DNA from: a bacterium
GTDB taxonomy: Bacteria > Bdellovibrionota_C > UBA2361 > RFPC01
Reading direction: 5' to 3'
NCBI GenBank assembly: GCA_030428205.1
Contig: JAUIBK010000016.1
Coordinates: 11,454 to 75,453, forward strand
Length of the DNA: 64,000 nucleotides
Position 1 is the stretch's first letter, and the number at the start of each line of letters is the position of its first letter. Shown here in pieces: positions 1,104-53,082 of the stretch. The notes beneath the pieces were generated by a model, which was not told the origin of the DNA, ran no database searches, and saw nothing but the letters and a program-made list of their open reading frames with translations. A program made the translations under genes and the position numbers.

Positions 1104-2591
1104 ATGGGCAATACCGCCGCTGAAGATCACAGCGAAAACCGCAGCCAAGAGAGCCAGAATGGCAGCTGTGATGACAATAGCGTAGCTACAAACGGACAGA
1201 TCAAACCAGATGTCCTAAAGCTCATGGCTCAGATCCGTGAGCGAGTAAAAGAAGATGCCTCGCAACAAGAAGATGTAAGACCGGCGTTTCGTCCTGAAAG
1301 CTCGGAGCCAGGCAAAGGAAGCAACCGCAAAGCTGGAGAGCTCCTCTATTCTGAAGAGCTCCGATATATCAACAGCAACTACTCGTACAGTCTCCGAAAT
1401 AACTTCGATTCGCTCACTTCTCACCGTCCAGGGATTCTTGGAAAGTTCATTGTAAAGGTAAAGCGTAAGCTGCTCTCGATTATTTGGGATAGCTTACTCA
1501 AAGAATACTTTGAAGCAGAAAAAGAGTATCAAGCAAATGTCGTTCGTTTTTTAAACGATGTGAGCAAGTATGTTGATGAGCGTGATGGATCAAACTTCTG
1601 GGAGCTTATCCGTAAGATCGATGTGGATGTGACAAAGGCCATCGAACGTATTGAACGAATAAGTGACGAGCAGATGGGTTCTATCCGGTCTTCTGAGCGG
1701 AGAGTGTTTGATGCTCTTGATGAAGCGCTAGCGAGCCTTCGTGGTTCTATAGAGGGGCTTACTGGCACAGTGCAAAAGCATGATGTTGGCCTCTGTGAGC
1801 TAGAGAGTGTCGCAAGTGGGCTTGAAGGGATCATTGCGAAACTTGGAAAAGACTCTGTTCCTCGTACGCAAGAAGAAGGAGAGAGCAAGCAGGTACCAGA
1901 CTACTCCTACCTTATGCTTGAAAACCGCTTTCGTGGTAGTGAAGAAGCTATTAAGAATCACCTCAAGATATACCCGCCAATTTTTCAAAATGCCTCTGCT
2001 CCTATCCTTGAGATCGGCTCTGGTAGGGGAGAGCTCCTTGAGCTCTTTCAAGAGGGTGGGAATGAAGCATATGGAGTTGATATCGACCACGCGATGGTTG
2101 AGGCAGCGTGTGCTAAAGGACTCCGTAGTGAGCTTGGTGACGGCATCGCTCACTTGCGCTCACTTGAGCCAAACTCTCTTGGTGGTGTTGTTGCTATCCA
2201 AGTTGTAGAGCACCTCACGCAAGCACAGCTCGAAGAGCTCTTTGAGCTCGTTGCCTCACGTGTTGTCTCAGGTGGAAAAGCTGTCTTTGAAACTATTAAT
2301 CCACAATCTGTTATGGCGCTCTCGTCGAACTACTTTAGAGACCCGACACATGTTTTTCCACTTCATCCAGATACCCTTTCGTACACTATGAAGTTAGCAG
2401 GGCTTCCCACTCCGAAGGTCACCAAAATCTCTCCTGTTCCTCAAGAAGCACAGCTCAAACCAATTCCTGTGGAATCGTACATGACACCACGTTGGGCGTT
2501 TGTGATTGAGCGGATGAACTGGAACTTTGATCGCCTCAACGATCTTCTCTATGGACACCAGGACTACTTCATTGAAGTAGAAGTTCCTTAA
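1104..2591 (+). CDS. Coiled-coil N-terminal domain fused to a class I SAM-dependent methyltransferase
   Basis: The motif I methyltransferase signature LEIGSGRGELLELF...GVDID is present. AGGGAG sits 9 nt upstream of the ATG at 1104. The ORF track starts at 1068. Confidence 0.6.
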   Translation: MGNTAAEDHSENRSQESQNGSCDDNSVATNGQIKPDVLKLMAQIRERVKEDASQQEDVRPAFRPESSEPGKGSNRKAGELLYSEELRYINSNYSYSLRNNFDSLTSHRPGILGKFIVKVKRKLLSIIWDSLLKEYFEAEKEYQANVVRFLNDVSKYVDERDGSNFWELIRKIDVDVTKAIERIERISDEQMGSIRSSERRVFDALDEALASLRGSIEGLTGTVQKHDVGLCELESVASGLEGIIAKLGKDSVPRTQEEGESKQVPDYSYLMLENRFRGSEEAIKNHLKIYPPIFQNASAPILEIGSGRGELLELFQEGGNEAYGVDIDHAMVEAACAKGLRSELGDGIAHLRSLEPNSLGGVVAIQVVEHLTQAQLEELFELVASRVVSGGKAVFETINPQSVMALSSNYFRDPTHVFPLHPDTLSYTMKLAGLPTPKVTKISPVPQEAQLKPIPVESYMTPRWAFVIERMNWNFDRLNDLLYGHQDYFIEVEVP

Positions 2592-2610
2592 TAGAGAGGG
2601 AGGAAGTACG

Positions 2611-3714
2611 ATGGCTAATATCCTTATTCTCGGCGTAAAAGTTCCTTTTACCAGTGGTGGGCAAGAAGTCTTAGTGCGAACGCTCTGTAAGGAGCTCAAC
2701 GCACGTGGCCACAACGCTGATGTTGTAGAACTTCCTTTTACTGTTTTTCCAAAGGAGAGTTTTCTTAATCAAGCTGCTATGTGGCGCGCCGTGGATCTCA
2801 CCACCTTTGGTGGAAAAGATGTGGATCTTGTTATTGCCACCAAGTTCCCAAGTTACTACGCTTCTCACCCAAAGAAGAGCCTCTGGCTTGTTCACCAGCA
2901 CCGTGCTTTGTATGACCTCTACGGTTCTCGTTATTCAGATATTTCTGATGATCCACGAGATGAAGCTTTGCGTCGGATGCTTGTTGAAGGCGACCGTAAG
3001 GTTATCGGCGAGTGTCAGTTCGTCTCGGGAATCTCTCAAAATGTAGTCAGTCGTCTTGAGAAGTATATCGATATTAAAGGCACAGCGCTCTATCCACCGC
3101 TTCCACAAGGAAGTGCATACCGACGGGGCGAATCTGAAGAGTATTTTCTCTCTGTTGGACGGTTGTGTGCCATCAAACGTGTTGATTTGATGCTCAAGGC
3201 GATGCCTATTGTTCACAACGTGGCAAAGCTTAAGATCGTTGGCACTGCTGATGAGCCTGGTGTTATGGAGTACTACAAAAACGAGATCGACAAGCACCAC
3301 CTCTGGGATAGGGTTGAGTTTCTTGGGCGTGTAAGTGACGAGGAACTTATTGATCTCTACTCGAAAGCGCTTGGAGTGTACTACGCACCACACGACGAAG
3401 ATTATGGATACGTTACCCTTGAAGCATTTGCTTCTGGCAAACCTGTACTTGCAGGAACAGATAGTGGGGGAGTCTTAGAGTTTGTCCGTCACGAAGAAAA
3501 CGGTCTTGTCGTAGATCCCACAAGTGATGCGTTTGGACACGCTGCAAACCGATTGATTGAAAACAAAGAGTGGGCTGCGCAACTCGGTGAAAACGGATTC
3601 TCGTTCATTCAAGAATCAGGGCTCTTAGAAAGTGGATGGGATACGGTTATTGATGGACTTCTCTCTCCACTTGAGAATACGTCATGTCAATCAGCTGTCG
3701 GATGTGGAGTATAA
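2611..3714 (+). CDS. Glycosyltransferase, GT4/GT1 family
   Basis: The C-terminal GT-B motif EAFASGKPVLAGTDSGGVLEFV...GLVVDP is present. GGGAGG RBS. Confidence 0.7.
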   Translation: MANILILGVKVPFTSGGQEVLVRTLCKELNARGHNADVVELPFTVFPKESFLNQAAMWRAVDLTTFGGKDVDLVIATKFPSYYASHPKKSLWLVHQHRALYDLYGSRYSDISDDPRDEALRRMLVEGDRKVIGECQFVSGISQNVVSRLEKYIDIKGTALYPPLPQGSAYRRGESEEYFLSVGRLCAIKRVDLMLKAMPIVHNVAKLKIVGTADEPGVMEYYKNEIDKHHLWDRVEFLGRVSDEELIDLYSKALGVYYAPHDEDYGYVTLEAFASGKPVLAGTDSGGVLEFVRHEENGLVVDPTSDAFGHAANRLIENKEWAAQLGENGFSFIQESGLLESGWDTVIDGLLSPLENTSCQSAVGCGV

Positions 3715-3720
3715 GTTTCT

Positions 3721-5052
3721 ATGTCGGCATCTGATAAACTCCGCATAGCTTGGTTTTCTCCTCTCGGCTCAGAGGGTGAGACGTCGATCTCTGCCTATGC
3801 AACAGAGACTCTTCTGCCGTATCTCACGGATCGTTTCGAGATAGAGCTTTTTCACGACTCTTTCTTCTCTCACAAGAAGTATCCGACGTATCACTACTTA
3901 AACGCGTTTTTGCGTGATAAGGAGCGTCCGTTTGATCTCTTCTTTTATCAGCTAGAAGACTCTCCGTGCACAAAATTTGTGAGAATGCACCTTGGGCTTA
4001 TGCCAGGGATAACGTGGTTTCACCACTTTTTTCTCTCTGATGATGGACCAGAACCAATTTTAAATAGTGGTTGGCAAGATACTGTGGATCACTTCTGTGG
4101 AAAGAGAACGGTGTGGCCTGAGCGAGGAAAAGAGTATACCCGTCCAGGTCCTCAAGCGTACCGCGAGGCAGGTCTTAGCTTTGCTTCGCTCTTTTCACTT
4201 GAGCGAGACCACGGTGAATACGAGAGACTTGTCACTCATAAGCTCCTTGCTGATAGTAATCAGCGCCAAAGTTTCTTTTTGCCACTACCTGTTTCAGAAG
4301 AAGTTTTCTCGTGTCGTAGTAAACAATCAACGACAGATGCTCCATTTCGTGTCGGATACTTTGGTACGCCACGTATTGAGCACCGAGCCCATAAGGTTCT
4401 TCAAGCACTCACAGAGAAGTATGAGCAAGAGGTGCAACTCCACTGGGTTGTCCCAGAAGAAGAGCTTGTGATTGCCCAAGAGAGACTTTCTGAGTTCGAT
4501 CTCGATGGTGTGCTCTATCCTCAAGCAACCCCTGAGCAGTGGAAGCAACTTCTCCCAGAGCTTGATTGTGCTCTGCATCCACTTTTTAGCGTTTTTGGAC
4601 AACCTGGAGCACCGCTTGCGATGAGCTTAGCTGCCGGCGTACCAACGGTTGTAACTGGATTTGGAAATACAGAGCGACTCGTAGACGAGGTGGCATGTAA
4701 GATTGAGCCAGGAAGTAGCGAAGCCACTCAGGTAGCCTCTGCGCTTCGAGAGTTGATGAAACAACCGAGACCGTTACAGAACAGAGAGGCCCAAGCCTTT
4801 GCTCGTGAGATGTACGATGTGCAAGGCGTGGCTGCTCAGCTCGGTGATACTTTTGAGTACCTAGTGAGCGGCGAACAAAGTTACCTACCACAAGCTATGA
4901 AACGGTGGCGCGCACTTGAGCAAGATGCAGCCGACTCGCTTCGAAAAGAAGTTTCCTCCTTTTTGCCAGCATCACTTTGGGAAGGGAAAGATGGAGAGTT
5001 GCTCAATCCTGTTTTCGAAGAACTCGGCTGGTCGTCGAAAGGAGAAGGGTAA
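3721..5052 (+). CDS. Glycosyltransferase-like protein, divergent GT-B fold
   Basis: The N-terminus RIAWFSPLGSEGETSIS and the C-terminal GAPLAMSLAAGVPTVV resemble GT1 architecture. Motifs are weak. Confidence 0.45.
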   Translation: MSASDKLRIAWFSPLGSEGETSISAYATETLLPYLTDRFEIELFHDSFFSHKKYPTYHYLNAFLRDKERPFDLFFYQLEDSPCTKFVRMHLGLMPGITWFHHFFLSDDGPEPILNSGWQDTVDHFCGKRTVWPERGKEYTRPGPQAYREAGLSFASLFSLERDHGEYERLVTHKLLADSNQRQSFFLPLPVSEEVFSCRSKQSTTDAPFRVGYFGTPRIEHRAHKVLQALTEKYEQEVQLHWVVPEEELVIAQERLSEFDLDGVLYPQATPEQWKQLLPELDCALHPLFSVFGQPGAPLAMSLAAGVPTVVTGFGNTERLVDEVACKIEPGSSEATQVASALRELMKQPRPLQNREAQAFAREMYDVQGVAAQLGDTFEYLVSGEQSYLPQAMKRWRALEQDAADSLRKEVSSFLPASLWEGKDGELLNPVFEELGWSSKGEG

Positions 5053-8296
<3,244 letters not shown>

Positions 8297-13589: not shown

Positions 13590-14732
13590 ATGAATTGCAA
13601 ACAAAAATGTCTTTTTATTCTTAAAAGTCTCTCGATAGTTTCACTTTTTCTTTTCGCTATGAGCCCTACTGCTTATTCAGAGGTTACCTGTGTGAAGGTC
13701 AAGTTGAATAAAAAGAAGAAGCCAAAGCTCGTTACTAAAGTTTTCCCAGATGCTTGCCCCGGAAAATTTGTACAGATTCAAGATACCAACGCAACTGTTC
13801 AAGGTGCGCAGGGGCCAAAGGGAGATACTGGGGCGCAAGGACCTCAAGGGCAGACTGGCCCGCAAGGCCCACAAGGATTGCAGGGGCTCCAGGGAGTGCC
13901 GGGAGTCGATGGGGCAGATCTGTATGAACGTACCATTGTCGTTCCTGCTGGAGAGGCGCCAACGGAGAATGGTAGTGCCCTTCTGAATGCTGCTTCTGGG
14001 CTTGTTGGAACTGTCGATGCTCCTTGGATGATTGAGCTTGAGAGCGGCACGTATGATCTTGGAGACCTTGTTCTTGAGCTTGGGACTTACGTGTCTCTTC
14101 GTGGAGCTGATACTCATAGCACTGTTGTGACAGGTTCGTCGTCCAGTGCAGTCGTTGATACAAATACTGGTAGCTCTCTTCGCAATATGTCAATTTTTGG
14201 AACTGCTATCACCACAAGCACCTTGTCTGGAGTTGTACGTGTTGATGACGACAACGATGTTCTTATTGAGAATGTCAAAATGACAAGCACTGGTCGTGGC
14301 TTGCTACTTGAGAATTGCTCTGGAGTGAAAATAAATCGTATCGACATTACAGCAGCTGGTTATGCTATTAATACGGATCATTCATCGCTTGATACCACGA
14401 TTTCAGATTCTCAAATAACCTCAACCGGTGATTCTGGTGTCGATTTTGGTACTTCGACTTCCCATACTATCGTTGAGCGTTGTGTCGTTACTGCCACGGC
14501 AATAGATCAGAGTGCTCTGCGAAGTAGTGGAGGAAGTGGTATCGTTCGTCATTCAACTTTGATTTCAAGCTTTGGTGGCACACTTGAAAGCTCAAATGGG
14601 AACACTGACATCGTAATCTCTCAAACGTATGTTGATGTTGAAGATTCTTTCAACATGCATTTTACAGGGGGAACAGCATCTTGTACTGCTATTTCCACAG
14701 ACAGTACATTTAGCACAACTACTTGTCTTTAG
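13590..14732 (+). CDS. Secreted collagen-like triple-helix repeat protein with a C-terminal right-handed beta-helix (pectate-lyase-like) domain
   Basis: Signal peptide, 15 G-X-Y repeats (GAQGPKGDTGAQGPQGQTGPQGPQG...), then Thr/Ser/Gly-rich beta-helix-type repeats. Confidence 0.65.
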   Translation: MNCKQKCLFILKSLSIVSLFLFAMSPTAYSEVTCVKVKLNKKKKPKLVTKVFPDACPGKFVQIQDTNATVQGAQGPKGDTGAQGPQGQTGPQGPQGLQGLQGVPGVDGADLYERTIVVPAGEAPTENGSALLNAASGLVGTVDAPWMIELESGTYDLGDLVLELGTYVSLRGADTHSTVVTGSSSSAVVDTNTGSSLRNMSIFGTAITTSTLSGVVRVDDDNDVLIENVKMTSTGRGLLLENCSGVKINRIDITAAGYAINTDHSSLDTTISDSQITSTGDSGVDFGTSTSHTIVERCVVTATAIDQSALRSSGGSGIVRHSTLISSFGGTLESSNGNTDIVISQTYVDVEDSFNMHFTGGTASCTAISTDSTFSTTTCL

Positions 14733-14828
14733 TGTTGCGATAAGTTCATTTGAAACAGCACGAATACTCTCTTTTCGCCCCGCTGAGCGGTTTGCGGCGG
14801 GGCCTCTGCAGAGTTCAGACAAGCCTCA

Positions 14829-17378
14829 TCAGGTATTACTTTCTATAAGATAGTTGTCGTCATCTGAGGCATCTTCTTCAGAGCATGCATATGTTTTTAC
14901 TGGAAGTTGTTTCGCAGCACCAATCGCTTGCTTAGCGAGTCTATGAATACGTTGGAGCTTTTTCTTTCGCTTTGTGCCTTTGAGGGCAAGGCGTAGTACT
15001 TTCTTCGCTTGTGACTTTAATGAGCGTATTGAATTTATGTACGTTTTCTTCTCTGAGCGAGTCTTCTTTTTTGTACAGAGAAGGGAGTCGTTGCATTTGA
15101 GAAGTTGCAGTTTCGTAACATCTCTACTTGCGCCTATCGCTTGTTCGTGAAGGAGGTTAAGAGTAGTAGACTCTTCAAGCAGTGCAGTCTGGTTGCTGCT
15201 TGACGTGTATGCTTTATGAGCAAGAGAAAGAGCAAGTTCTACCATGGCGGTGAGTTTTCGATTCGCTTTGATTATTTTCTTGCTCTTATTTTTTGTCTTA
15301 CAGTTATAATCTGCGAAATTTCTTTGTCGTACGACGACTGCTGGAAGGACTTCGCCTGTTGAGAGAGCTATGGAGTTGGTAGCGAGTGTGAGATCCTCAC
15401 GGTCTATGCTCAGGTTGTAGTCTCCTGCTGGGACATTCTGAAATGTAAATGTGTTTCCTTCTTCCAGAAGAGTGACGAAGGAACGAGGATGAGAAGATAT
15501 TCCACTCTCAGAAGTTGCGTCTGCTTCTCCTCCTGTTCTTGGAGTAAGGTGAGCTTGGGTGCCTGAGAGATCCGAAGAGGCTCCACCGACAGTACCACGA
15601 ACATCATAAAGGTCTTCTCCATCCTCTTGGCTTGTAGGTGTAGGAGCGGGAAGAGGTGGCGCATCGGGGAATTCCGCTGGTTGTACAACTTCGGTGAGAG
15701 CCGTAAGCTTTTCGTTTTCCCCAAGAGTAAGAAATGGACCATAGAGAAAACTACCAGGATGAGGGATGACAAATCGAATCGTATTCGTATAGCCATAGTA
15801 TGCTACATAAGGAGTTTCAGCGACTGATGTATCAAGATGTTGAATGCCAACTATTCGAGGAAATTCTTCTGGGTGAACACCGATACTGCCATACCAGTCC
15901 CCATTCTCGTAATCAAAACTTGGAAGTTCTTCTCTCCGAACCCAATAACCAGCGGTGTGCACGAGCTGATCATCATCAAAACTAGCGAAGCTCGAAATAG
16001 GGCTTATGAAGTTGACAAAGCTACTTGATACGCTTTTATCACCTCGATCGACTGTTTTATAGAGATAGAGGTTTCTGAAGTAATCATCCGACACAGCTTT
16101 TTCGACGAAAAGGACCGCATCACCATAGAATCCAAGACTTGAAAGAAGGGTAGAGTCTCCATTCAAAGAGAGGAGAGTTTCTTCATCGTCTCCATCTACC
16201 AAGTCAACACTCACTATGGTCTGTGAATCACTGCAGTAGTAGAGTCGGCCATAAATATCATCAGCTAACAGGCAGTAGACCGAAGAGTTTTGAAGAGTGA
16301 GAAAGTCTTCCACGTTTGTGCCATCTGCATCGGCCATTTTAATTTTGACGGTATTTCCGCTTGCATCCACCCAATACAGTTTTTCTGTCTCCACAGAATA
16401 GCTCATTGCCTTTACGTCTCCGATAGTATCGGAATCAAATACAGGCACGATTTCTTTCGTTATGTTTGTCCAAAATATTCGGGAAGTATTGAGTTGTGTA
16501 TCACGAACAGCAAAGTACATTCTTGTATCATCATAGATGCTCGAGGTGGGCTCCTGTGTGTCCCCTGTAGTAAAGTTCGCTATGATATCATAACCTTTTT
16601 GAGAAGCGACTGCGCTTAGAGAAGACCCATTTGTATTGACACTGCTGAGAAGTGTCCCTGAAGAAGGTGCGCCAATGAAGAGCAGCTTTTGAAGAGTGTT
16701 ATCATATGTAATTCCACGGGGAGAATTTGTACTTGAAGAGAGGAATGCTTCAGGAGAACTTCCATCGGTATTACATCGATAGATGGCATCTTTTGTATGG
16801 TTCGACCAATAGAGTTTTCCATTGAATAGAGTAAGATTGGTGAGGGTGTCTCCTTGGGCAATATTGTCGAAGAGAGAAGATTGATTGAGTCCATCACTGA
16901 GGTTCACACGCTCGATTCCTTCGAGGCTTGCGTAGTACAGAGTGTTTGTTGACTCGCTTACGAACAGACCATAGGGGTCTGACATACCAACAAGAAACAG
17001 CTCTTTGTTGCTACCATCTAGATCGGCTCGATAGATAGCTGCTTCCTGTGGATCGCTCCAGAGTATTTTATTATTTGTCAGGTCGAGTGCGATATCGTTT
17101 ATGGAGCTACTTGCTGAGGCAAAAATGGTGACGATATTGCTCCCATCCCGATTGGCTCGTTTTATTGAGGGGCCAGAGTCACTGTAATACAGGTGGTTAT
17201 TCTCAGGATCGTATGCGAGGGCTCTCGTTGCTGACGCAATGAAGGTTGAAGTTACGCTAGTCTCGCTGTCAACTAGTTTAATATCGCTGCCTGTAGCAAC
17301 AAGGATGTCCGCTGATAAGGGAAGCGACGATAGAAGGAGCAAAGTAAAGAGTATTCGAAGGAGGCTCATATATTTCAT
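14829..17378 (-). CDS. Secreted YWTD/LDL-receptor class B beta-propeller repeat protein with a Lys-rich C-terminus
   Basis: Signal peptide. Repeats of type LYYSD...IKRANRDGSN, ILWSD...IYRADLDGSN and LYWSN...IYRCNTDGS. The C-terminal tail is KK-rich. Confidence 0.6.
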   Translation of the reverse strand: MKYMSLLRILFTLLLLSSLPLSADILVATGSDIKLVDSETSVTSTFIASATRALAYDPENNHLYYSDSGPSIKRANRDGSNIVTIFASASSSINDIALDLTNNKILWSDPQEAAIYRADLDGSNKELFLVGMSDPYGLFVSESTNTLYYASLEGIERVNLSDGLNQSSLFDNIAQGDTLTNLTLFNGKLYWSNHTKDAIYRCNTDGSSPEAFLSSSTNSPRGITYDNTLQKLLFIGAPSSGTLLSSVNTNGSSLSAVASQKGYDIIANFTTGDTQEPTSSIYDDTRMYFAVRDTQLNTSRIFWTNITKEIVPVFDSDTIGDVKAMSYSVETEKLYWVDASGNTVKIKMADADGTNVEDFLTLQNSSVYCLLADDIYGRLYYCSDSQTIVSVDLVDGDDEETLLSLNGDSTLLSSLGFYGDAVLFVEKAVSDDYFRNLYLYKTVDRGDKSVSSSFVNFISPISSFASFDDDQLVHTAGYWVRREELPSFDYENGDWYGSIGVHPEEFPRIVGIQHLDTSVAETPYVAYYGYTNTIRFVIPHPGSFLYGPFLTLGENEKLTALTEVVQPAEFPDAPPLPAPTPTSQEDGEDLYDVRGTVGGASSDLSGTQAHLTPRTGGEADATSESGISSHPRSFVTLLEEGNTFTFQNVPAGDYNLSIDREDLTLATNSIALSTGEVLPAVVVRQRNFADYNCKTKNKSKKIIKANRKLTAMVELALSLAHKAYTSSSNQTALLEESTTLNLLHEQAIGASRDVTKLQLLKCNDSLLCTKKKTRSEKKTYINSIRSLKSQAKKVLRLALKGTKRKKKLQRIHRLAKQAIGAAKQLPVKTYACSEEDASDDDNYLIESNT

Positions 17379-24206: not shown

Positions 24207-25622
24207 TCAGAGCACTGGAGATGCTATTCGAAAGACATTTTCTCTGAGCCGAGTAAGGAGCGTCTCCTTTGGTAAGTTGCTGAGTGATAACTCTGTGCTC
24301 TCGGTCTTTATATCACTCAGTGTCTGTGACAAATCCTTATGAACTTTCTTGTCAATCGCAAGCAGACTCGATTCGAAGTTAATAAAGAAACTCCGTTGGT
24401 CCATGTTTGCTGAACCAATAAAAGAGACCTCATCATCAATGATGACGACTTTGGCGTGAACAAATGCCTTTCGGCTTTCGAAGATCTTTACACCTGCTTG
24501 AAGAAGTTCACGGTACCAACTTTTTGCTGTAACATTAACAATCCAAAGATCTGACTTGTAGGGGAGTAGCACCTCGACCGAAATCCCTTGCTGAGCAAGG
24601 GATTTAAGCGTGAGTATAAAGGCATCTGTTGGAATAAAATACGGGGTAAGGATGGAAACCCGCTGTTGTGCTTGCTGAAAGAGAGAGGTGAGGATCATCT
24701 CTAAGGTCGAGTCTTCTTCTTCTGGGCCCGTTGGAATGACTTGTAGTAACGTGTTTCCTTGTGGAGAGAGCTCTGGAAAATACTCTTGACCGTCGAGTTT
24801 TTCACCAGACGTAAATCCCCAATCTTCTGAAAAAATGCACTGTAGGTGTGCTACGGCAGGTCCTTTGATTTGCACGGCAACATCTCTCCAGAGTAATTTT
24901 CTGTTTCTCCACTGGAAATATTCATTTCCAATATTTTGACTGCCGATGAATCCTGTTGTGCCATCAATAATGGCAAGTTTGCGGTGATTTCGGAGTTGAA
25001 ATCCCCAAGGGCGTCTTAGGGTAAGGGGCCAGAAGAAAGCCACCTGTACACCAGCGTCTTTGAGAGGGCGAAGAAACTTACGATTGAGATAAAATGAGCC
25101 CACAGCATCTACGAGCAATCGACATTCAACACCTTGTAGAGCTTTCTTGATTAAGAGTTCTCGAAACTGTTTGCCAATATCGTCTGGACGAAAAATATAA
25201 TATTCCAAGTGAACATGGTGGCATGCAGACGCGATAGCTTCTGTAAGCGCGGTGTATGTCAAAAAAGATTCATCAAGGGGGGTTACAAGATTACCTCCAT
25301 TCTCAGGGAACTCGGTCAGATTTTGGGCGAGCCTATGAATTTTACTATAGCGACACGTGCTGGCTTTATCGGGGGTCTGGTTCGCATCGCTTGGTTGAGG
25401 GGTGGGGTTCGGCTTTATGGCACGTTGTCGGACTGTATAGCGGTAGCCTGCAAGGATAAAGATCAAGATGCCAAGATAGGGAAGGAGAAAGAACGCGAGA
25501 ATCCAAGTAAGCGTGGTTTCAGATCGTCTTCTTTGAGGCTGAACGAGTACGTAGAGAGAGAAGAGGGTGGCAAGGATAGGGTGAAGCGGCAGGATGTACA
25601 GCCATTGAGTGTGCTCGAACAT
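24207..25622 (-). CDS. cls: Cardiolipin synthase, phospholipase D family
   Basis: Two HKD motifs (HRKLAIIDG, HAKVVIIDDEVSFIGSANMD) and N-terminal transmembrane helices. The start is taken at MFEHTQW. The ORF track extends to 25751. Confidence 0.8.
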   Translation of the reverse strand: MFEHTQWLYILPLHPILATLFSLYVLVQPQRRRSETTLTWILAFFLLPYLGILIFILAGYRYTVRQRAIKPNPTPQPSDANQTPDKASTCRYSKIHRLAQNLTEFPENGGNLVTPLDESFLTYTALTEAIASACHHVHLEYYIFRPDDIGKQFRELLIKKALQGVECRLLVDAVGSFYLNRKFLRPLKDAGVQVAFFWPLTLRRPWGFQLRNHRKLAIIDGTTGFIGSQNIGNEYFQWRNRKLLWRDVAVQIKGPAVAHLQCIFSEDWGFTSGEKLDGQEYFPELSPQGNTLLQVIPTGPEEEDSTLEMILTSLFQQAQQRVSILTPYFIPTDAFILTLKSLAQQGISVEVLLPYKSDLWIVNVTAKSWYRELLQAGVKIFESRKAFVHAKVVIIDDEVSFIGSANMDQRSFFINFESSLLAIDKKVHKDLSQTLSDIKTESTELSLSNLPKETLLTRLRENVFRIASPVL

Positions 25623-25786
25623 ATTTTTCCTCTCTTGAGAGCATACGAGATGAGCAGCAATGGGAGCAAGAGGAAGGTGCTCACACGTTCTTAGCTCTTC
25701 GCTAACACTTTTCAAACTCGAACTGACTGAAAAGTTATGGCAGCGTTCCATGTATTGTACTGTCTCTCTCTCGAAGGAACCCGTCG

Positions 25787-27019
25787 ATGTCCGCTGAAGC
25801 TAAAGTATTGCTCAAGAATGCTGTTGAACACTCCTCTACGAAGCGTCAAGGGGCGCTTGAGAAGATGTTCACCTATTGGTTTAACGGTTTTGTCTATAAC
25901 CAGATTTGGGAAGATCCTGTTGTTGATATGAAAGCGATGCAGCTTTCAAGCCAGTCAAGAATCCTTACGATCTCATCTGGTGGGTGTAATGTGCTCTCTT
26001 ATCTTACGAAGTCTCCCGCTTCGATAGATGCAGTAGATCTCAATCCCTATCACCTGGAACTGACGAGACTGAAACTTACTGCCGTTCGACACCTTCCAAA
26101 TTATGAGACTTTCTATGAGTTTTTCGGAAGAGCTCGAAGTAGCGAGAATGTGAGAAACTATTTCAAGTATATCTCACCCCATCTCTCGTTTGAGCAGCGT
26201 GCATTCTGGGAGAATCGTCGTGGCCTGTTGGCTCCGCGCATTCAATACTTCCGTAAGGGACTCTATGATGTGTCTCGTTCCGGCTATTTTATCCGTTTTC
26301 TTCACTCTATTTGTCGCCTTGCAAACTGTAAGCCTGAAAAGCTCCTTGCTGCTCACTCTCTACAAGAACAAGAGGAGCTCTTTTCAAAATATCTTGAGCC
26401 TGTTTTTTCTCATCCCGTGGTTCGTATCTTGGGACCGGTATCGCCACTCCTCTTTAGCCTCGGTATTCCCCCGAAGCAATTTGAGGCGCTTCGGGCAGAG
26501 CACCCCGGAGGAATTGTTGCGCTCTATTGTGATAGGGTGAAACGGCTTGCATGCCGCTTCCCTATTCAAACAAACTACTTTGCTTGGCAAGCATTTTCTC
26601 GAAAATACAGTAACGATTGGCATGGGTTTCCTGAATATCTCAAGCCTCACCATTATGAAGCGATCCGTGAGAATGCTCACCGTGTTCGTCTTCACAATAT
26701 GGGACTCACTGCTTTTCTTGAAGAAAAAGCACCCGAAACCCTTTCACATTTTGTCTTTCTTGATTCTCAAGATTGGATGCCTGATCACGTGCTTCAAGAC
26801 CTTTGGTCAGAAGTGGGGCGTGTATCTCAACCGCAATCAAGAGTCATTTTTCGTACGGCTGCTGCCCATAGTCCTGTGTGTGCCGCCTTAGAATCACTGG
26901 GATGTAAGAAGTTTGAGTATCGCCGCGATGAGTCTTTGAGTCTCTACGATCAGGACAGATCCGCGATCTACGGTGGTTTCCATCTCTATGCTCGTGGTGG
27001 TTCAAAGAATGTCGCATAA
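25787..27019 (+). CDS. btaA: S-adenosylmethionine:diacylglycerol 3-amino-3-carboxypropyl transferase (BtaA-like, DUF3419)
   Basis: N-terminus MFTYWFNGFVYNQIWEDP...ILTISSGGCN, characteristic of BtaA. Confidence 0.65.
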   Translation: MSAEAKVLLKNAVEHSSTKRQGALEKMFTYWFNGFVYNQIWEDPVVDMKAMQLSSQSRILTISSGGCNVLSYLTKSPASIDAVDLNPYHLELTRLKLTAVRHLPNYETFYEFFGRARSSENVRNYFKYISPHLSFEQRAFWENRRGLLAPRIQYFRKGLYDVSRSGYFIRFLHSICRLANCKPEKLLAAHSLQEQEELFSKYLEPVFSHPVVRILGPVSPLLFSLGIPPKQFEALRAEHPGGIVALYCDRVKRLACRFPIQTNYFAWQAFSRKYSNDWHGFPEYLKPHHYEAIRENAHRVRLHNMGLTAFLEEKAPETLSHFVFLDSQDWMPDHVLQDLWSEVGRVSQPQSRVIFRTAAAHSPVCAALESLGCKKFEYRRDESLSLYDQDRSAIYGGFHLYARGGSKNVA

Positions 27020-27665
27020 CGAGCTGATGGATAAGACATATCGTTTTCAGCGATATATCTATGATGCAACAAGAAAGTACTTTTTGCTCGGGAGAGATCG
27101 CTTAATTGATTCACTTGAGCCAAAGCCAGGAGCTCGTATTCTCGAAGTAGGAGTGGGAACGGGGAGAAATCTGCTCTGTCTTGCAAAGAAGTATCCTGAG
27201 TGCACCTATTATGGACTCGATGCATCTTCGCTTATGCTTGAAACCGCGAAAACTCTTTTTACAAAAAAAGGTTTGACCCCACCAAAGCTCAAAGAAGCGT
27301 TGGCTGAAAAGGTTGATTATCGAGAGCTCTTTGATGTTCCAGAAGGCTTTGATTATATCATATTTTCATATGCCATTTCGATGATACCAGCTTGGGAGGA
27401 GTCACTTGCAAGAGGAGTGGAGGCGCTTTCGCCTCATGGAACGCTCTCTGTGGTTGACTTTGGAGATCAAGCTGGACACCCTCATATCTTTCGCACGTTC
27501 CTCTGGAAGTGGCTTGGATTCTTCCATGTCCATAAAAGGTTTTCTCTCTTGGGAAGCTTAGAAGGTTTGGCAATCAAAGCAAGGGCTCACTTCGAGTATG
27601 AGTCTGTTGTTCGAAACTATGCATGGGTTGCTCATGTACAACTTGGCCAAGAGAAAACCTCATGA
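27009..27665 (+). CDS. btaB: SAM-dependent N-methyltransferase (BtaB-like)
   Basis: YRFQRYIYDATR...ILEVGVGTGRNL methyltransferase motif I. It overlaps the end of btaA. Confidence 0.6.
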   Translation: MSHNELMDKTYRFQRYIYDATRKYFLLGRDRLIDSLEPKPGARILEVGVGTGRNLLCLAKKYPECTYYGLDASSLMLETAKTLFTKKGLTPPKLKEALAEKVDYRELFDVPEGFDYIIFSYAISMIPAWEESLARGVEALSPHGTLSVVDFGDQAGHPHIFRTFLWKWLGFFHVHKRFSLLGSLEGLAIKARAHFEYESVVRNYAWVAHVQLGQEKTS

Positions 27666-28372
27666 GTGCTGCCCCATTACATTCGTCTCCTGTTGATACG
27701 GATGCGGCAGAGCCGCAGCTTGAAGGGGTTTCCATGAGTCGCAACCCTCTTCCTTTCCTATGGATGACAGATAGGAACACATTTCCTTTTCGAGAGGACA
27801 CCGTTGTCCTTGTTCCTAGTGTTGTTGACTTTGAGGATCAGATATTTAACGTAAGTGTGAACGTTCGACGTTCACACCCAGATAGTGTGCCAGCTAATTT
27901 TATCCAAGAAGATCTCCCTCAAGAACTTCTCGAGAGGATTGAAGAGCTTCGAAGCGAAGGCGCTAAGATGCATTGGGTACTTCTTGATGTGCGATTGATG
28001 CAACCGTCTGACGTTTATGGTTCACGAAGTGCTTATAGCCCTTCACTCGCTTCGAGTTCTCGTAAAGGAGCAGTTCCTTTAAGTGAAAAGGAAAGTCTGC
28101 AGCGAACAAAACAAAGAGAAGCCAAGAGGCGGATAGCTTCGCCAAAAGAGGAAGCCTCAAGCCCCCATGGAAAGGCGAGGAAGCTTCAGCCCGTTACCGT
28201 TTCCCCTGCCTTGACACAGGCCCCTGATCTTGTCTTGGCTCAAGAAAGGGAGCATTCTGAATCGACCGCAGGTTCCACCGAAGAAGAGCTAACGGGTGCT
28301 CAGAAGCAAGAGGCTGACGCAAGAATGCAAGCGATTCTGAATAAATTTCGGAAACAAGGATACAAGGTTTAG
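27662..28372 (+). CDS. Hypothetical protein translationally coupled to btaB through an ATGA overlap
   Basis: The ATG overlaps the btaB TGA. The C-terminus is charged and Lys/Glu-rich. No recognisable domain. Confidence 0.45.
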   Translation: MSAAPLHSSPVDTDAAEPQLEGVSMSRNPLPFLWMTDRNTFPFREDTVVLVPSVVDFEDQIFNVSVNVRRSHPDSVPANFIQEDLPQELLERIEELRSEGAKMHWVLLDVRLMQPSDVYGSRSAYSPSLASSSRKGAVPLSEKESLQRTKQREAKRRIASPKEEASSPHGKARKLQPVTVSPALTQAPDLVLAQEREHSESTAGSTEEELTGAQKQEADARMQAILNKFRKQGYKV

Positions 28373-28403: not shown

Positions 28404-29180
28404 TTACGGCTCACCGAAGATAACATCGAGGTCGAATCGGTCTGAGTTATTTTCTCGAGCTTCCGCCTCTGCAAGGCGAGCCTCGAAATCAAGCATTTTT
28501 TGATATTCACGGTAGGGGGCAAAGATAAATTCGGCAAGAATTTCAAAATATGATTGCTCACCCGGAGTTTTCCCTTTTTTCTCGCGAAGGACAGGGAGTA
28601 GTATTTTTATTGCTTCGTAGGTTTCAAGGCTTAGTTGTTTATTGATAGCGATTTCGCGAAAAAGCCGAGAGGTGAGATCGAGAGCAATGATATTAGGCTC
28701 CATTCGCTTTCGTGGAGGCTTATATTCTTCGTCTTTCTTTTCGTTGTTGGTTTCTGTTTCTTCGTTCGAATTCTTTGCATTTGAACGCTTTTTTATTTTT
28801 GGTCTGCGAATAGCTTTCGGACGGCATGAAGACGAGAGAGCCTTAAAGAACTGTTTGCATGCCACACATCCAATGGTAGTACGAACGAAATCTTTCGTAT
28901 TCTCGTAAAGCCATTCGTTTCGACCATCTTCGGCAATCGCTGCGCATAGTGCCTTGAAAAGTTTTTTCTGTTTGCCGTAGCCACGAAAGCGAGTTGTTTT
29001 TTGCCGCTTTTTTTTCACAATCGAAACGGTAGGAAGCTCATCTTGGTATTCATGCTTGGGATTATCAAAGCGTGGTGATTGGGGAGCGATCTGTGGAGTT
29101 TCCTGGGCAAGCAGAGAAGGACCAGCGAGAAGAAGGAACAGAAGGAGCGAGAACGAAAATGTAAAGTATTTTCTCTGCAA
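28404..29180 (-). CDS. Secreted Lys-rich hypothetical protein
   Basis: Signal peptide MQRKYFTFSFSLLLFLLLAGPSLLAQ followed by a basic region. Confidence 0.5.
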   Translation of the reverse strand: MQRKYFTFSFSLLLFLLLAGPSLLAQETPQIAPQSPRFDNPKHEYQDELPTVSIVKKKRQKTTRFRGYGKQKKLFKALCAAIAEDGRNEWLYENTKDFVRTTIGCVACKQFFKALSSSCRPKAIRRPKIKKRSNAKNSNEETETNNEKKDEEYKPPRKRMEPNIIALDLTSRLFREIAINKQLSLETYEAIKILLPVLREKKGKTPGEQSYFEILAEFIFAPYREYQKMLDFEARLAEAEARENNSDRFDLDVIFGEP

Positions 29181-30661: not shown

Positions 30662-30854
30662 TTCGGAGTTTTCTCTGAGCTATCTCTGTTCAAACTCTTC
30701 TGCATAGAGAGAGAAGTCGACTACCAACTTCTGTAGGCTGTGTCTTGTTAGTGCCCTGAAATTACAGGATTTTTCATCTGGCCATCACTTTGCAGGGTTA
30801 TAAACGATTTTGTCTACTGACGGATGAAATCGAAATTCGTTATTCTCTACTCCT

Positions 30855-43390: not shown

Positions 43391-45322
43391 TTATCCTGTT
43401 TCCTTCATACTTCTCTGATTTATTTGAGCTTGCAGCTCTCTTGCTTGGGCGATGAGGGAATCAACGCCAGTGGAAGGAGATTGAGTCCCTTCTCCATAAG
43501 GTCCTCTGTGTTCTGTTGGAAGAAGGGAAGCTACTCGATCACCTAACAGATGAGCCACTACTTGAGGGGAAGAGTTGTTCGCATGTTTGGTAAGCGACTC
43601 GGCTGGGAGTGGTTCGCCAAAGACAACTTGTATTGGACGAGAGGAACTGATCTTCGTAGTTTTTCCGTTTGAGAAGTTGGCGCCACCTACTTGGCACCAG
43701 GGCACGATAACGAGATCGCTCGGAAGTCCGCCACTATTAGAGAAAGCTGTAAGTGTCTCCATAAAGTGTGTTCCAAACGAGTTCATTGCCGTTGGTGAGC
43801 ATTCATTTTCAGGGAAGAGAGCGAGAGCATCAGCTGGGGACCGTAAAGCGTCAAGCCCTATTCTCATTGCCTCTTCGTATGGTGGAAGAGCTGGACTTGC
43901 AGGAAGATTTGTCGAGCGAGGTATGATAATCCTATTTGCGGCTGCTCCTAGAATGCTTTTAGCAAACTGACTGGAATAGTGCTCGTCTTTCTCGGTATGG
44001 GTAAGACCGTCAGCTATTCTCCGTAGACCTGAGGAACGTAAAGCGTGGGAGAGAAGAGTTGCATCACCCCAGCCACTGTGGTTTCCAATGAAAAGAAGTT
44101 TTTTGCCGTCACGATAGAGATCCGTGAGGGCATCCGCTCCAGTAACCTGAAAGTTTTCGTGTGTGAAGATGGACTGTGTCAGAGCTGTTGTGAGAAATTG
44201 GAGGGACCGACTTGCCGGAGAAAGTTCAATCGAAGCAGTTTCTTGAGGTTGTCCTTCAAATTCTCTGTCGAGTGCGGATTTGTATTCTTCAACATAATTG
44301 TTGAGTTCTATAAGTTCACTGTGATCGAGTCTGCTGAGTGCGCTGTGTAAAGCAAACGCGACAGCATCTCCCGCAAAACCGTGTCCGGGAAGAGTCGCCG
44401 AAAGATCTTGAGAGAGTTCGTGTCTGAGACTATCTGCCGATAGAGAAACTCCTTTGCCCCACTTTAAGGTGGGTTGAGTGCTTGGAGATGAGGCTTTGTG
44501 ATCTGTACGGCCAGCGTAGAGTTCTTGTTCTTGGGCGTATTGAGTTACAACGTCAATCCCCTTGGCCCGGCCTGCTCGGATATCGGTAGCATGAATGTTA
44601 TGTAGTCCTGGATAGACGAGAACCGTCTCCTTGAATCCTGGAATTTTGTTGTACATCCTCCGAAAGCCGAAGAATCGATCTGCATGAGGATTCTCTTGGA
44701 TTTCGGGAGTGTGAGTCCAGAGTGTATTTTGTGAGATTGCCTTTTCAAAGTTGTCTGGGCCAAGGAGTACATAATTATTTTTCCCCCAGAGTGAGCGTAG
44801 ACGTAAGTCGTCAAAAGTTCGTTTATCCGTGGGTATAAAAACTCCGGGTTCTTCGAGGGAGTCATCAGGGGAATCGAAAACGGTGATACCTACATTTTCA
44901 AGTGCTCTGCGAGCCATTTCATGTCTGTGCTCAAAGCTTGAAGATTGAGGTTTGTATGGATTTTGAAAAACAACACCGAGATTAACTCGAGAAAAGCCTA
45001 GTTTGAGTGTTTCTTGAATGATTTCTAAGTGGTGAGGTCCAATCGGATCAAATGTCCCTTCGAACCAAACAGAGCACTCGTGCGCATGTGAAGGAGCGCG
45101 AAAAGGATGTTGTTGCAAATGAAGCAGTGCTCGTGGGGGAATATTTGAGGTATCAACGAGTTCTATTGAGTTGTTTTCCCTTGAGGCATCTAGATTTGCT
45201 GCAGGGTGCTCCAGTGCAGCGAGTGGAGAGACGGGAAGAGCTGGCCTTTCTGGTGTGGATTCTGCTGGCTGTTGATTCCCAGGCTGTTCTGATAGATCAG
45301 GTTGCTTCGGATCAGTTTGCAT
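43391..45322 (-). CDS. Fusion protein: NadD-like nucleotidyltransferase domain plus PlsC-type acyltransferase domain
   Basis: GTFDPIGPHHL (HxGH) and IHATDIR (ISSTxIR-like) at the N-terminus. FIGNHSGWGD (NHx4D) acyltransferase motif at the C-terminus. Confidence 0.5.
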   Translation of the reverse strand: MQTDPKQPDLSEQPGNQQPAESTPERPALPVSPLAALEHPAANLDASRENNSIELVDTSNIPPRALLHLQQHPFRAPSHAHECSVWFEGTFDPIGPHHLEIIQETLKLGFSRVNLGVVFQNPYKPQSSSFEHRHEMARRALENVGITVFDSPDDSLEEPGVFIPTDKRTFDDLRLRSLWGKNNYVLLGPDNFEKAISQNTLWTHTPEIQENPHADRFFGFRRMYNKIPGFKETVLVYPGLHNIHATDIRAGRAKGIDVVTQYAQEQELYAGRTDHKASSPSTQPTLKWGKGVSLSADSLRHELSQDLSATLPGHGFAGDAVAFALHSALSRLDHSELIELNNYVEEYKSALDREFEGQPQETASIELSPASRSLQFLTTALTQSIFTHENFQVTGADALTDLYRDGKKLLFIGNHSGWGDATLLSHALRSSGLRRIADGLTHTEKDEHYSSQFAKSILGAAANRIIIPRSTNLPASPALPPYEEAMRIGLDALRSPADALALFPENECSPTAMNSFGTHFMETLTAFSNSGGLPSDLVIVPWCQVGGANFSNGKTTKISSSRPIQVVFGEPLPAESLTKHANNSSPQVVAHLLGDRVASLLPTEHRGPYGEGTQSPSTGVDSLIAQARELQAQINQRSMKETG

Positions 45323-45564
45323 AAATACTACGAAACTCCAAGTTCATAGACTCATAGATAAAAAGAATGATTCGCGATGGGCAGATGGTGAATAAAAGAA
45401 CAACAAATAGACTGGGAGAAGTGGATAGCGAAGGGGAGAGACGAACACACGCCTCACCCGTACTCACATGAACACTAACCCTAGTGGCGCGAAATATAAC
45501 CTAGCGCTTTTCAAATTGCACGGGGACAACGAAAGAAAACGCCACGAGAATTGTTTATTCTTTG

Positions 45565-46398
45565 TTAGTGGTTTGAGGCCAGTTGAAGAGGAGTTCTCTC
45601 ATGGGTGTAAGTTACTGGGTATACTCCCTCAATCCTTGTCGTAATGCGCGATTGGTCGATAGTAACCGTGGCAAAAGCTTCGGCCGCAACACCATTGTCT
45701 TTTGCGTCTTCAATAAATGATTGAATTGTAAAATAGGGAATATTATTGACTACATGGAAGTCATTGGAGTGCATGTGGCCATTAAATACAGCGGCAACTT
45801 TACCTGAGCCTTCGAGGAGTGTTCTCAGGGTTTCACTATGATGGATAAAAGCATACTCCGGGATTCCCTTGAACCAAAAGGTGTCTTCAAGGGGCCTCTC
45901 AACAAGTGGATGGTGAATAAAGACAAGTACAGGCTTTTGAGACTTCTTGAGCTCATCTGATAACCAGGTGAGCTCCTCCTCGGGAATATGTGCATTTTTG
46001 AGTTCTGGTGTGCGGCTATAGAGCACCAAGTTCGTAAATTCTTGAGATTCAAAAGAGTAGTAGAGCTTCTCGTAGCCAAAACCTTCTTGAAGCTCATGCT
46101 CAGAGAGCACGGCTGTGTCGTGGTTCCCAACTACGTGATAGACCGGGCATGGGTGCTGCCCGAAGATCTCCATTGAATCTGCAAGCTTCTTTGACTCTTC
46201 AGAGTGGGAGGGAGCATCTGGGTTTTCTTGAAAAAGATCACCAAGTTGGACGACAAACTCAGTGGGCTTGGATTCTAGTCGGCTCAGTGCTTCTTTGATT
46301 GAGGTTAAAGTCCCGTGTGTTACAGGCTCTTTTGTGACAGGGTGCTTGCGTGGTACGCCTACATGAAAGTCAGAGATGAGGCCAAAAACAGTAGTCAT
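45565..46398 (-). CDS. Calcineurin-like metallophosphoesterase
   Basis: GDLFQEN, YHVVGNHD and GHMH motifs. Confidence 0.7.
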   Translation of the reverse strand: MTTVFGLISDFHVGVPRKHPVTKEPVTHGTLTSIKEALSRLESKPTEFVVQLGDLFQENPDAPSHSEESKKLADSMEIFGQHPCPVYHVVGNHDTAVLSEHELQEGFGYEKLYYSFESQEFTNLVLYSRTPELKNAHIPEEELTWLSDELKKSQKPVLVFIHHPLVERPLEDTFWFKGIPEYAFIHHSETLRTLLEGSGKVAAVFNGHMHSNDFHVVNNIPYFTIQSFIEDAKDNGVAAEAFATVTIDQSRITTRIEGVYPVTYTHERTPLQLASNH

Positions 46399-46682
46399 AA
46401 CACGGTCTCCTTGTTTGGTCGGCGAGATTGTGCCTTATCTCTATTCTTGTTTCAACTGCCACCAACCTGAGTTTCTTCTCCAAGCACCATGAGCTCCGGT
46501 TGAGTTGTTGAGGGTGAGCAGGCCTGTTCGATATTTTACAGTTGCGTCAAGGAATCCCTGAGGAAGTATTGCTCTTCCAGAGGGGTTTGGTATATTTAAA
46601 ACCTCGTTTTGATGTCAGGGGCTATCTATAGTCAGTTTAACTCTCATCCTTTTATGAGTATGAGAAGAGGTGGGTCGTAATT

Positions 46683-48299
46683 ATGCTACATTCGCAAGGT
46701 GAAGGGACCTCAGGAGGTTCATCTAGGAATAACTCAGAACATGCCGTAACTGACCCCTCTGTGTCGCAACAGCTACGTCCTGATGACCAGAGATTGGCAA
46801 TTCTTGCACACCAAGGAGTCCAGGGGGAGCTTCCGCCAAATTCTCTTGCCGCCCTTGAGCAGGCATTTCATACCGCAGACGTTGTTGAATGTGACATCTA
46901 TACAGCCCCAGACTCCAGTGAAATCGTTGTGATTCACCCTGAGAGCTTCTTTCTCTTTGTTGATAAGAATGGGATGCAAAATGAAAAGCCCATTCCGATA
47001 GGCCTTGATGAATTGCGAGCTGTCAATGTTCGTGGCCACCAACTTGTACCGACCTTGAATGAAGTGCTGGATGTCTACACGTCAATCCCAGGAAGAAAGG
47101 CAGAGTTGCATATCGAACTGAAAGGCCCTGGAACAGCTGAGGCTGTTGTGCCCTTGCTCCGTCAACGAGTGGAGTCTGGGGAACTTGCATATGAAGACTT
47201 CCTCCTGACGGGCTTATGTTACAAAGGAGACGAAAAGTCTCGGATTGAAGTTGCTCGTGAACTTGACCCAGAAGCTCGCTTAGTTCTTGTGGTTCGTGGA
47301 GGAGATCTCGAATCAGAAGGATTTGATGGATGGCAAGGAGTTATCGAGAAGGGCAAAGAGCTCCAGGTAGAAGTGATTACGGCAGCAAGAAAATTCCTTA
47401 CTCCAGAGATCGTAGCTCAACTGAGAGATGCTGGTTTTGAAGTTGGATGTTATCACAGCCGTACCTCTGATGAGCTTGAAGCGGCCCTTGCTCTAGAAAC
47501 AGATGTTGTTGCAGCGGACTTCTTTTGTGGTGCGAGTGTGGAAGATTATCCACACGTGCGGAAAAATGGGTCTCCTCTTTTTGCTCCTCTACAAGAAGCA
47601 GGCTATTACCACATGCGTGATCTTATCTGGGAGCTTGGTTGGAAGCTTGAATCACAGCGAGATTCTTGGCCAAATGTTGATCAAGGGCCCGGAAAAGTGC
47701 AGGCAGATGCAGGGGTGCTCCACCGTGAGGACCAACTCATAGCGAAGCTGCTTCATGAAGGAGTCGAGTCTCCGGTCCACTGTGATCTCTCTCGAGTTCT
47801 CATTCCTGAAGAGTTTCTTGGTGACATTGATCGAACAGTATTCTCTACAACAGTGACGTTCTCAGAACTTCTTTCCCCTGGTGGGCAATTACGCCTTAGA
47901 GATAGCTTGCTCGATGATTTTCTTGATCGTGATGTCCCAGGTGTATCTGAAGCTACGGTTGATTTTCTAACAGGTCTTTCCGTGCGTGATTTTTTACGCA
48001 TTGGTGACGGAGTGCCTCAAGAACTCTTACGAGAAGTTTCGCAACCGCTCGATGAAACAGAGCTCTCGTTTTGTGAAACTTTTTCTCGCGATTTTGCCGT
48101 TCGTACGGGACGATTGCTTGGGATGCTTGGATTTACAGCATTAAACCCAAGGCATGGGGCGAAAGATTCTTATACGGTAGCTATCTCGTCACCTCTCTTA
48201 GATGAATCCTCTTGGGCGAGGCAGGGAGCACATGAGCAAGTACAGGCTCAGCTCCTTCGAAGTGGCAAGATGGGGGAAGTGGAGTTTCTTTCTTCCTAG
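46683..48299 (+). CDS. Glycerophosphodiester phosphodiesterase-like N-terminal domain plus a C-terminal domain of unknown function
   Basis: AHQG...PNSLAALEQAF...ECDIYTAPDSSEIVVIHPE resembles the GDPD catalytic region. Confidence 0.45.
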   Translation: MLHSQGEGTSGGSSRNNSEHAVTDPSVSQQLRPDDQRLAILAHQGVQGELPPNSLAALEQAFHTADVVECDIYTAPDSSEIVVIHPESFFLFVDKNGMQNEKPIPIGLDELRAVNVRGHQLVPTLNEVLDVYTSIPGRKAELHIELKGPGTAEAVVPLLRQRVESGELAYEDFLLTGLCYKGDEKSRIEVARELDPEARLVLVVRGGDLESEGFDGWQGVIEKGKELQVEVITAARKFLTPEIVAQLRDAGFEVGCYHSRTSDELEAALALETDVVAADFFCGASVEDYPHVRKNGSPLFAPLQEAGYYHMRDLIWELGWKLESQRDSWPNVDQGPGKVQADAGVLHREDQLIAKLLHEGVESPVHCDLSRVLIPEEFLGDIDRTVFSTTVTFSELLSPGGQLRLRDSLLDDFLDRDVPGVSEATVDFLTGLSVRDFLRIGDGVPQELLREVSQPLDETELSFCETFSRDFAVRTGRLLGMLGFTALNPRHGAKDSYTVAISSPLLDESSWARQGAHEQVQAQLLRSGKMGEVEFLSS

Positions 48300-52831: not shown

Positions 52832-52863
52832 ATCGTGAGCTCCCTAAAGTTTTTCACTGTCTA

Positions 52864-53082
52864 GGTCTTAGCCTTAGTCTTAGTCTTAGTCTATAATCTT
52901 GGTCTTGGCCTGATTCTTAGCGTTGGCCTCCGCCTATAAAAACTCCCACTTTCACCTCAGCATGCACGCGTACGGGAACGTCTACGTTAACGTTTCATTT
53001 TAAATGCGAGGATCAGGCTGATGCCAAGAATAGGACCAAGACCAAGATGTAGACTAAGGCTAAGACTAAGGCTAAGGCTGAG
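52864..53082. repeat. Long palindrome of 6-bp tandem units, copy B. The arms are separated by an 88-bp spacer.
   Basis: Left arm CTTAGC CTTAGT CTTAGT...TCTTGG TCTTGG. The right arm is its reverse complement (CCAAGA...CTAAGG CTAAGG). The spacer contains acgttaacgt, gcatgc and acgcgt palindromes. Confidence 0.6.

Follow-up and report, generated by a model that had tools for sequence, protein, structure and literature searches.

A predicted btaA-btaB betaine-lipid operon followed by a lineage-restricted gene in a Bdellovibrionales-like bacterium

Gene organisation

The locus described here lies on contig JAUIBK010000016.1 of the NCBI GenBank assembly GCA_030428205.1, within a stretch of 64,000 nucleotides (positions 11,454 to 75,453 of the forward strand) that was analysed as a whole and is called the window; unless indicated otherwise, coordinates refer to the window. 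Three open reading frames (ORFs) follow one another on the plus strand: ORF1 and ORF2, which were assigned to btaA and btaB, the predicted genes for diacylglyceryl-N,N,N-trimethylhomoserine (DGTS), a betaine lipid, and ORF3, which has no known domain. They are bordered by a divergent cardiolipin synthase gene (cls) and by a gene, ORF258, that converges on ORF3 (Table 1).

Table 1. Features of the btaAB locus (positions in the window).
Feature	Position	Strand	Remarks
cls, cardiolipin synthase (ClsA type)	24207..25622	-	TIGR04265, E 4e-102, 342.6 bits (cut-off 290)
divergent cls/btaA intergenic region	25623..25786	.	164 bp; 23-bp conserved block, btaA Shine-Dalgarno sequence
btaA, predicted S-adenosylmethionine:diacylglycerol 3-amino-3-carboxypropyl transferase	25787..27019	+	410 aa; PF11899, S. 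meliloti homology
btaB, predicted diacylglycerylhomoserine N-methyltransferase	27009..27665	+	218 aa; class I S-adenosylmethionine methyltransferase, S. meliloti orthology
ORF3, lineage-restricted protein of unknown function	27662..28372	+	236 aa; start overlaps btaB stop (ATGA)
ORF258, signal peptide predicted, no known domain	28404..29180	-	258 aa; convergent to ORF3; no Pfam/NCBIfam match

The btaA ATG is preceded by an AAGGA Shine-Dalgarno sequence. The longest frames of ORF2 and ORF3 open at 26973 and 27623, with ATG starts at 27009 and 27662. The ATG of btaB lies 11 nt inside the end of btaA (stop codon TAA, 27017-27019), so that the two genes overlap by 11 nt; the start codon of ORF3 overlaps the TGA stop codon of btaB in the tetranucleotide ATGA (27662-27665). 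An earlier reading of this DNA, made from the letters without database searches (the sequence-only reading), had given exactly these boundaries for all three ORFs together with both overlaps, and the ATGA on which it had based translational coupling of ORF3 to btaB was found as described.

Identification of btaA and btaB

ORF1 was matched nearly end to end by the Pfam family PF11899 (DUF3419/BtaA; E 9.3e-101, 338.2 bits, cut-off 28.2, profile positions 4-384 of 385). Reference proteins of Sinorhizobium meliloti were taken from strain Ak57 (PLSDB record CP090106.1, 2458967-2466153), and the btaA locus of this strain was 43 % identical to ORF1 across ORF1 residues 9-401. The motifs YNQIWEDP, SGGCN, DLN and DRSAIYGGFH, which are invariant across an alignment of 13 BtaA sequences, are present in ORF1 as well as in S. 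meliloti. Matches to ORF1 number more than 5,700 among database proteins, many of them named S-adenosylmethionine-diacylglycerol 3-amino-3-carboxypropyl transferase; the best match from another genome, at 86 % identity, belongs to a Bdellovibrionales metagenome-assembled genome (MAG) and carries the NCBI name "BtaA family protein". None of the NCBIfam equivalog models matched ORF1. On the strength of these comparisons ORF1 is BtaA, with the enzymatic role predicted from homology.

The S. meliloti reference record has peculiarities of its own: it is 3.7 Mb long and chromosome-sized, yet is labelled "plasmid pSymB" in PLSDB, and its btaA is split into two overlapping, unannotated ORFs (positions 2953-3693 and 3618-4202 of the retrieved stretch), which reflects a frameshift or an assembly error.

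ORF2 matched the Pfam families Methyltransf_25, Methyltransf_12, Methyltransf_31, Methyltransf_11 and Methyltransf_23 (E 6e-12 to 7e-9), all of them generic families of class I S-adenosylmethionine (SAM) methyltransferases, and among named solved structures the closest in sequence was 8ys9, a phospholipid N-methyltransferase (E 1.8e-6). The methyltransferase encoded directly downstream of btaA in S. meliloti, the start of which overlaps its btaA stop by 4 nt, showed 46 % identity to ORF2 (E 2e-62) across ORF2 residues 2-207 of 218. Since this alignment opens at SH..LMD, the start at 27009 was favoured over 27027, the position chosen by the automatic gene call in the public copy. For comparison of gene order, 80 btaA loci were kept from a scan of species-representative genomes, none of them from a model organism. 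In 76 of these 80, btaA is followed on the same strand by a homolog of ORF2 (39-48 % identity), mostly less than 200 nt away, and such homologs also come after btaA in the additional btaAB loci that were fetched. ORF2 is accordingly more than a generic methyltransferase: it is of the BtaB type, an N-methyltransferase by predicted activity.

The sequence-only reading had named ORF1 as BtaA/DUF3419 and ORF2 as a BtaB-like SAM N-methyltransferase, and had proposed a Pfam search of both proteins as a check. That search was positive in each case, the signature quoted for ORF1 (MFTYWFNGFVYNQIWEDP...SGGCN) was found there, and for ORF2 the full-length identity of 46 % to the btaB partner in S. meliloti points the same way.

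The ORF3 family

ORF3 matched no Pfam or NCBIfam model (noise only in Pfam at E values up to 10), which agrees with its earlier description as a protein of no known domain, and a sequence-profile search of the PDB gave noise only. A word-indexed search returned ORF3 itself and nothing else. When 1.84 billion cluster representatives were searched exhaustively with phmmer, two true homologs were recovered: P0122, at 37 % identity and E 1e-29, and P0123, at 35 % and E 3e-15. The family stayed at these three members when 5.8 billion proteins were searched with a profile, and a scan of JGI metagenomes yielded none. Because homologs exist at these E values, ORF3 was accepted as a genuine gene. A further candidate, P0124 (E 2e-12), was rejected as an artefact: this protein of 722 aa consists of about 11 identical tandem repeats of 62 aa, and its score is the sum of 11 weak stretches.

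All three members have in common a core at about residues 28-118 (motifs FLW, RR, LP and QPS), a variable linker rich in Lys, Arg, Ser and Pro, and a short basic amphipathic helix at the C terminus. The core was well modelled by AlphaFold2. In this picture ORF3 would be a fast-evolving protein in which a small alpha/beta domain is followed by a linker, basic and disordered, and by an amphipathic helix at the C terminus.

Relation of ORF3 to btaAB

The sequence-only reading had put forward ORF3 as a possible new accessory of the pathway, and had pointed to co-occurrence with btaB in other genomes as a way of judging this. Such co-occurrence mostly failed. An ORF3 homolog was present within 6 kb of btaAB at 0 of the 80 species-genome loci, nor was there one at any of the other btaAB loci of Bdellovibrionales-like origin in which sequence beyond btaB is available. 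What follows btaB in the additional loci is different each time: genes for an LpxH-like metallophosphoesterase and a family 4 (GT4) glycosyltransferase, an inositol monophosphatase gene on the opposite strand, a gene for a GGDEF regulator, or nothing. One of the two homologs, P0123 (locus L013, ERZ27279858), is found without btaB, among genes for an extracytoplasmic function (ECF) sigma factor and NrsF and some unannotated genes; its locus was also compared with the neighbours of ORF3 in the window (ORF258 and cbs), none of which it shares.

The other homolog, P0122, does follow btaB. On its contigs (L011 and L012, from ERZ28655193 and ERZ27309112) the 3' end of btaB encodes ...NYAWVAHLKLR before the stop codon, and the spacing to the ORF3 homolog is TGA-GGAG-7 nt-ATG. 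A homolog of ORF258 lies downstream of P0122 on L011, with its C-terminal 35 residues 77 % identical to those of ORF258 in the window. As this neighbour on the opposite strand was kept as well, the P0122 case was read as a block inherited by descent and not as an independent association. The C terminus of ORF258 is thus more conserved than ORF3 itself.

Against this background, it is unlikely that ORF3 is a lineage-specific DGTS accessory, for example a peripheral membrane adaptor that would recruit or regulate soluble BtaA and BtaB through its C-terminal helix. The proposal draws on the ATGA coupling to btaB, on the GGAG Shine-Dalgarno sequence retained at the btaB-ORF3 junction of the P0122 relative, and on the positively charged amphipathic helix conserved in all three members, which would fit a membrane-peripheral role. 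It is opposed by the absence from the btaAB loci surveyed, by the location of P0123 away from btaB and by the inherited synteny of the only positive case; moreover, no tie of the ORF3 fold or of any domain to lipid biology was found by the sequence and structure comparisons made, and BtaA and BtaB alone are reported as sufficient in bacteria, going by the title of Riekhof 2005 as cited in PMC4796936. Equally unlikely is the proposal that ORF3 is the founder of a new and very rare family, with a small alpha/beta fold to which nothing was matched, and that one Bdellovibrionales-like lineage has recruited this family to act at the membrane as a partner of BtaA and BtaB or as their regulator.

ORF3 is most likely a lineage-restricted gene co-transcribed with btaAB, that is, a lineage-specific passenger of the operon; at most it would have a local and dispensable role, as a modulator or as a partner associated with the membrane. 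A general role in the pathway is improbable because the family is tiny and lineage-restricted and is missing from all other btaAB loci examined. Unless it is tied to the pathway, ORF3 is a minor curiosity.

The cls gene and the divergent intergenic region

The cls product contains the domains PLDc_N, PLDc_2 and two copies of PLDc (PF00614 in two stretches), with two phospholipase D (HKD) motifs, and its TIGR04265 score lies above the cut-off (Table 1), as expected from the earlier placement of a cardiolipin synthase gene immediately upstream on the opposite strand. The longest ORF (24207-25751, minus strand) encodes 514 aa. Since cls of the closest relative encodes 471 aa (70 % identity), translation probably begins at M44 (25622), for a product of the same length, and the 514-aa ORF is probably over-extended at its N terminus.

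The arrangement pnp-cls-btaA is common to the relative with the 86 % identical BtaA, whereas cls is adjacent to btaA in 0 of the 80 other loci. Because this adjacency is lineage-specific, the description of the region as a membrane-lipid remodelling locus in the sequence-only reading was an over-reading; cls is better regarded as a neighbour peculiar to this lineage, with a divergent promoter region in common with btaA, than as a conserved partner.

A block of 23 bp in this region (25700-25722, CGCTAACACTTTTCAAACTCGAA) is 100 % conserved in the same relative, while its flanks diverge. An 18-mer of the block recurs with three mismatches at 30680-30697 (CTATCTCTGTTCAAACTC), between cbs and a tetratricopeptide repeat (TPR) gene; two matches were found against 0.07 expected. 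The block and the 18-mer could represent one motif, of a promoter or of a regulator, common to both sites. Read on the minus strand, the block includes TTGAAA, possibly the -35 element for transcription of cls; in 25623..25786 a sigma-70 promoter scan gave no scored match, so that this reading of the block is without support from the scan.

Pathway assignment

In Rhodobacter sphaeroides and S. meliloti, DGTS is made by BtaA and BtaB; in S. meliloti, btaAB is under PhoB control and phosphate stress induces it (PMC3972451; PMC8829014). The locus described here agrees with these systems in its two genes and in their order, the start of btaB again overlapping the end of btaA, and shares with S. 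meliloti the motifs YxQIWEDP, SGGCN and DRSAIYGGFH as well as the glycine-rich SAM-binding motif LEVG(V/C)GTGRNL of the methyltransferase. It differs from these systems in its phylum, in the coupled downstream ORF3 and in the divergent upstream cls gene.

In view of the PF11899 match, the identities to S. meliloti (43 % and 46 %) and the ORF2 homologs in 76 of the 80 genomes, the pair was regarded as a genuine btaAB operon. Since the system has been characterised in S. meliloti and R. sphaeroides, orthology suggests the following pathway: BtaA would move the 3-amino-3-carboxypropyl group from SAM onto diacylglycerol, yielding diacylglycerylhomoserine, and BtaB would methylate the amine of this product three times to give the phosphorus-free betaine lipid DGTS. 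ORF3 would be co-transcribed and translationally coupled with btaAB, and induction under phosphate limitation would be expected by analogy. A canonical btaA-btaB DGTS operon in a Bdellovibrionales-like bacterium, with ORF3 not a conserved component and cls not a conserved partner, is the preferred interpretation, to which a probability of about 85 % was given on the basis of these sequence comparisons.

Some observations count against parts of this interpretation. The tight btaB-ORF3 junction was kept in a relative with an ORF3 of no more than about 35 % identity, which would fit a functional link specific to the lineage. Conservation of ORF3 among near relatives is, in addition, poorly sampled: the locus of the P0122 relative is available as fragments of about 1 kb, and the contig of the closest relative stops inside btaA. 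As for regulation, a search of the whole window for the Pho box CTGTCATAWAWCTGTCAY (two 7-bp direct repeats with an 11-bp period) at up to three mismatches gave no match, with the qualification that this consensus is that of E. coli and may not be the one used in this phylum. The sequence gives no support for phosphate control because a Pho box of the E. coli consensus is lacking, a further difference from PhoB-regulated S. meliloti; pst or pho genes were likewise absent from the window.

It is very improbable that the DUF3419 protein and the methyltransferase make a product other than DGTS, such as another aminocarboxypropylated or a partly methylated lipid: the failure of NCBIfam equivalog models to match ORF1 and the generic nature of the Pfam matches of ORF2 would allow it, but the 43-46 % full-length identity to the S. 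meliloti pair with the same operon order and overlap, the retention of the invariant BtaA motifs and the conservation of the btaA-btaB pairing across phyla all speak for the canonical product.

Genomic setting

The operon is set in a chromosomal housekeeping region (rpsO-pnp, cbs), and the rest of the window is of the same character (ligA, gltX, rpsO, pnp, cbs, tyrS, aconitase and flagellin genes). Horizontal transfer of the locus was considered and rejected on account of its native base composition: the GC content and the GC content at third codon positions (GC3) of btaA, btaB and ORF3 are indistinguishable from those of the housekeeping neighbours, and since GC3 matches in this way there is no sign of recent transfer. 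Rfam and tRNA searches returned no features in the window.

Distribution of btaAB

In the species-genome scan with btaA, 588 of the 600 stretches listed were confirmed as relatives, so that at least 588 matches exist in species genomes. Those listed came from Thiotrichales, Verrucomicrobiota, Acidobacteriota, Planctomycetota, Myxococcota, Desulfovibrionaceae, Alphaproteobacteria, Latescibacterota and others, and annotated copies of btaA were present in at least three Bdellovibrionales MAGs. The sequence-only reading had considered the presence of btaAB notable; with a family so widespread and already named by NCBI in Bdellovibrionales MAGs, it is unremarkable. In the literature searched, no paper connecting Bdellovibrio with betaine lipids was found; the lipid DGTS is thus unreported there for Bdellovibrio, while the btaAB genes in that group are not new. 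The analysis predicts that this Bdellovibrionales-like bacterium can make phosphorus-free DGTS, which adds slightly to the picture of phosphorus-sparing membranes outside the Proteobacteria. No open question is moved by it, because the gene pair is automatically annotated in sister MAGs and occurs widely across phyla.

Among the Bdellovibrionales MAGs, GCA_020434525.1 is the relative with the 86 % identical BtaA and the same pnp-cls-btaA synteny; its contig ends inside btaA, and therefore ORF3 is not scorable there. GCA_020434565.1 and GCA_020434495.1 also carry btaA-btaB pairs, but, unlike the locus in the window, without an adjacent cls and without ORF3. In GCA_020434565.1 (positions 1491-5394 of the retrieved locus) the pair is preceded by a gene of the Exo_endo_phos family (391 aa), the product of which may be phospholipase C/sphingomyelinase-like, and is followed by a convergent gene of the inositol monophosphatase family; the accessory genes of btaAB clearly vary between lineages.

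A Thiomargarita MAG contig (loci L003 and L014; positions 6001-9835 of L003) carries co-oriented genes for BtaA, BtaB, a PlcP-like, LpxH-like metallophosphoesterase (286 aa) and an Agt-like GT4 glycosyltransferase. Judged by its gene content, this cluster looks like a complete phosphorus-sparing lipid-remodelling operon in which the betaine-lipid and glycolipid branches are joined. Types of lipid-remodelling clusters in which btaAB occurs together with PlcP and a glycosyltransferase were reportedly described by Sebastian et al. in 2016. The cluster resembles the locus in the window in having further co-oriented genes after btaA-btaB and in the idea of a phosphorus-sparing membrane locus; its extra genes encode the metallophosphoesterase and the glycosyltransferase, whereas the extra gene here is the domain-less ORF3. 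The single metallophosphoesterase gene of the window, 18 kb away (45565-46398), was examined as a candidate PlcP and rejected: its product has no similarity to the PlcP-like protein of L003 and is cyclic-nucleotide phosphodiesterase-like.

Other features of the window

A cluster at 43391-48299, some 18 kb from btaAB, encodes a cytidylyltransferase-like protein of 643 aa, the metallophosphoesterase just mentioned (277 aa) and a protein of 538 aa with a glycerophosphodiester phosphodiesterase (GDPD) domain; the cluster may act in phosphodiester turnover. A tandem repeat at 52860-52921 (unit GTCTTAGCCTTA, about 4.7 copies) is followed 130 nt further on by 2.2 copies of the reverse-complement unit AGACTAAGGCTA (53051-53076), so that the two form an inverted pair of arrays; both are intergenic, between a class-V aminotransferase gene and a DUF5610 gene. 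Unusual surface-type proteins are encoded at 13590-17378 and 61950-63842: one with a collagen triple-helix repeat and a beta-helix (380 aa), one of 849 aa that combines low-density lipoprotein (LDL)-receptor class B repeats with DUF5050, and a long flagellin (630 aa).

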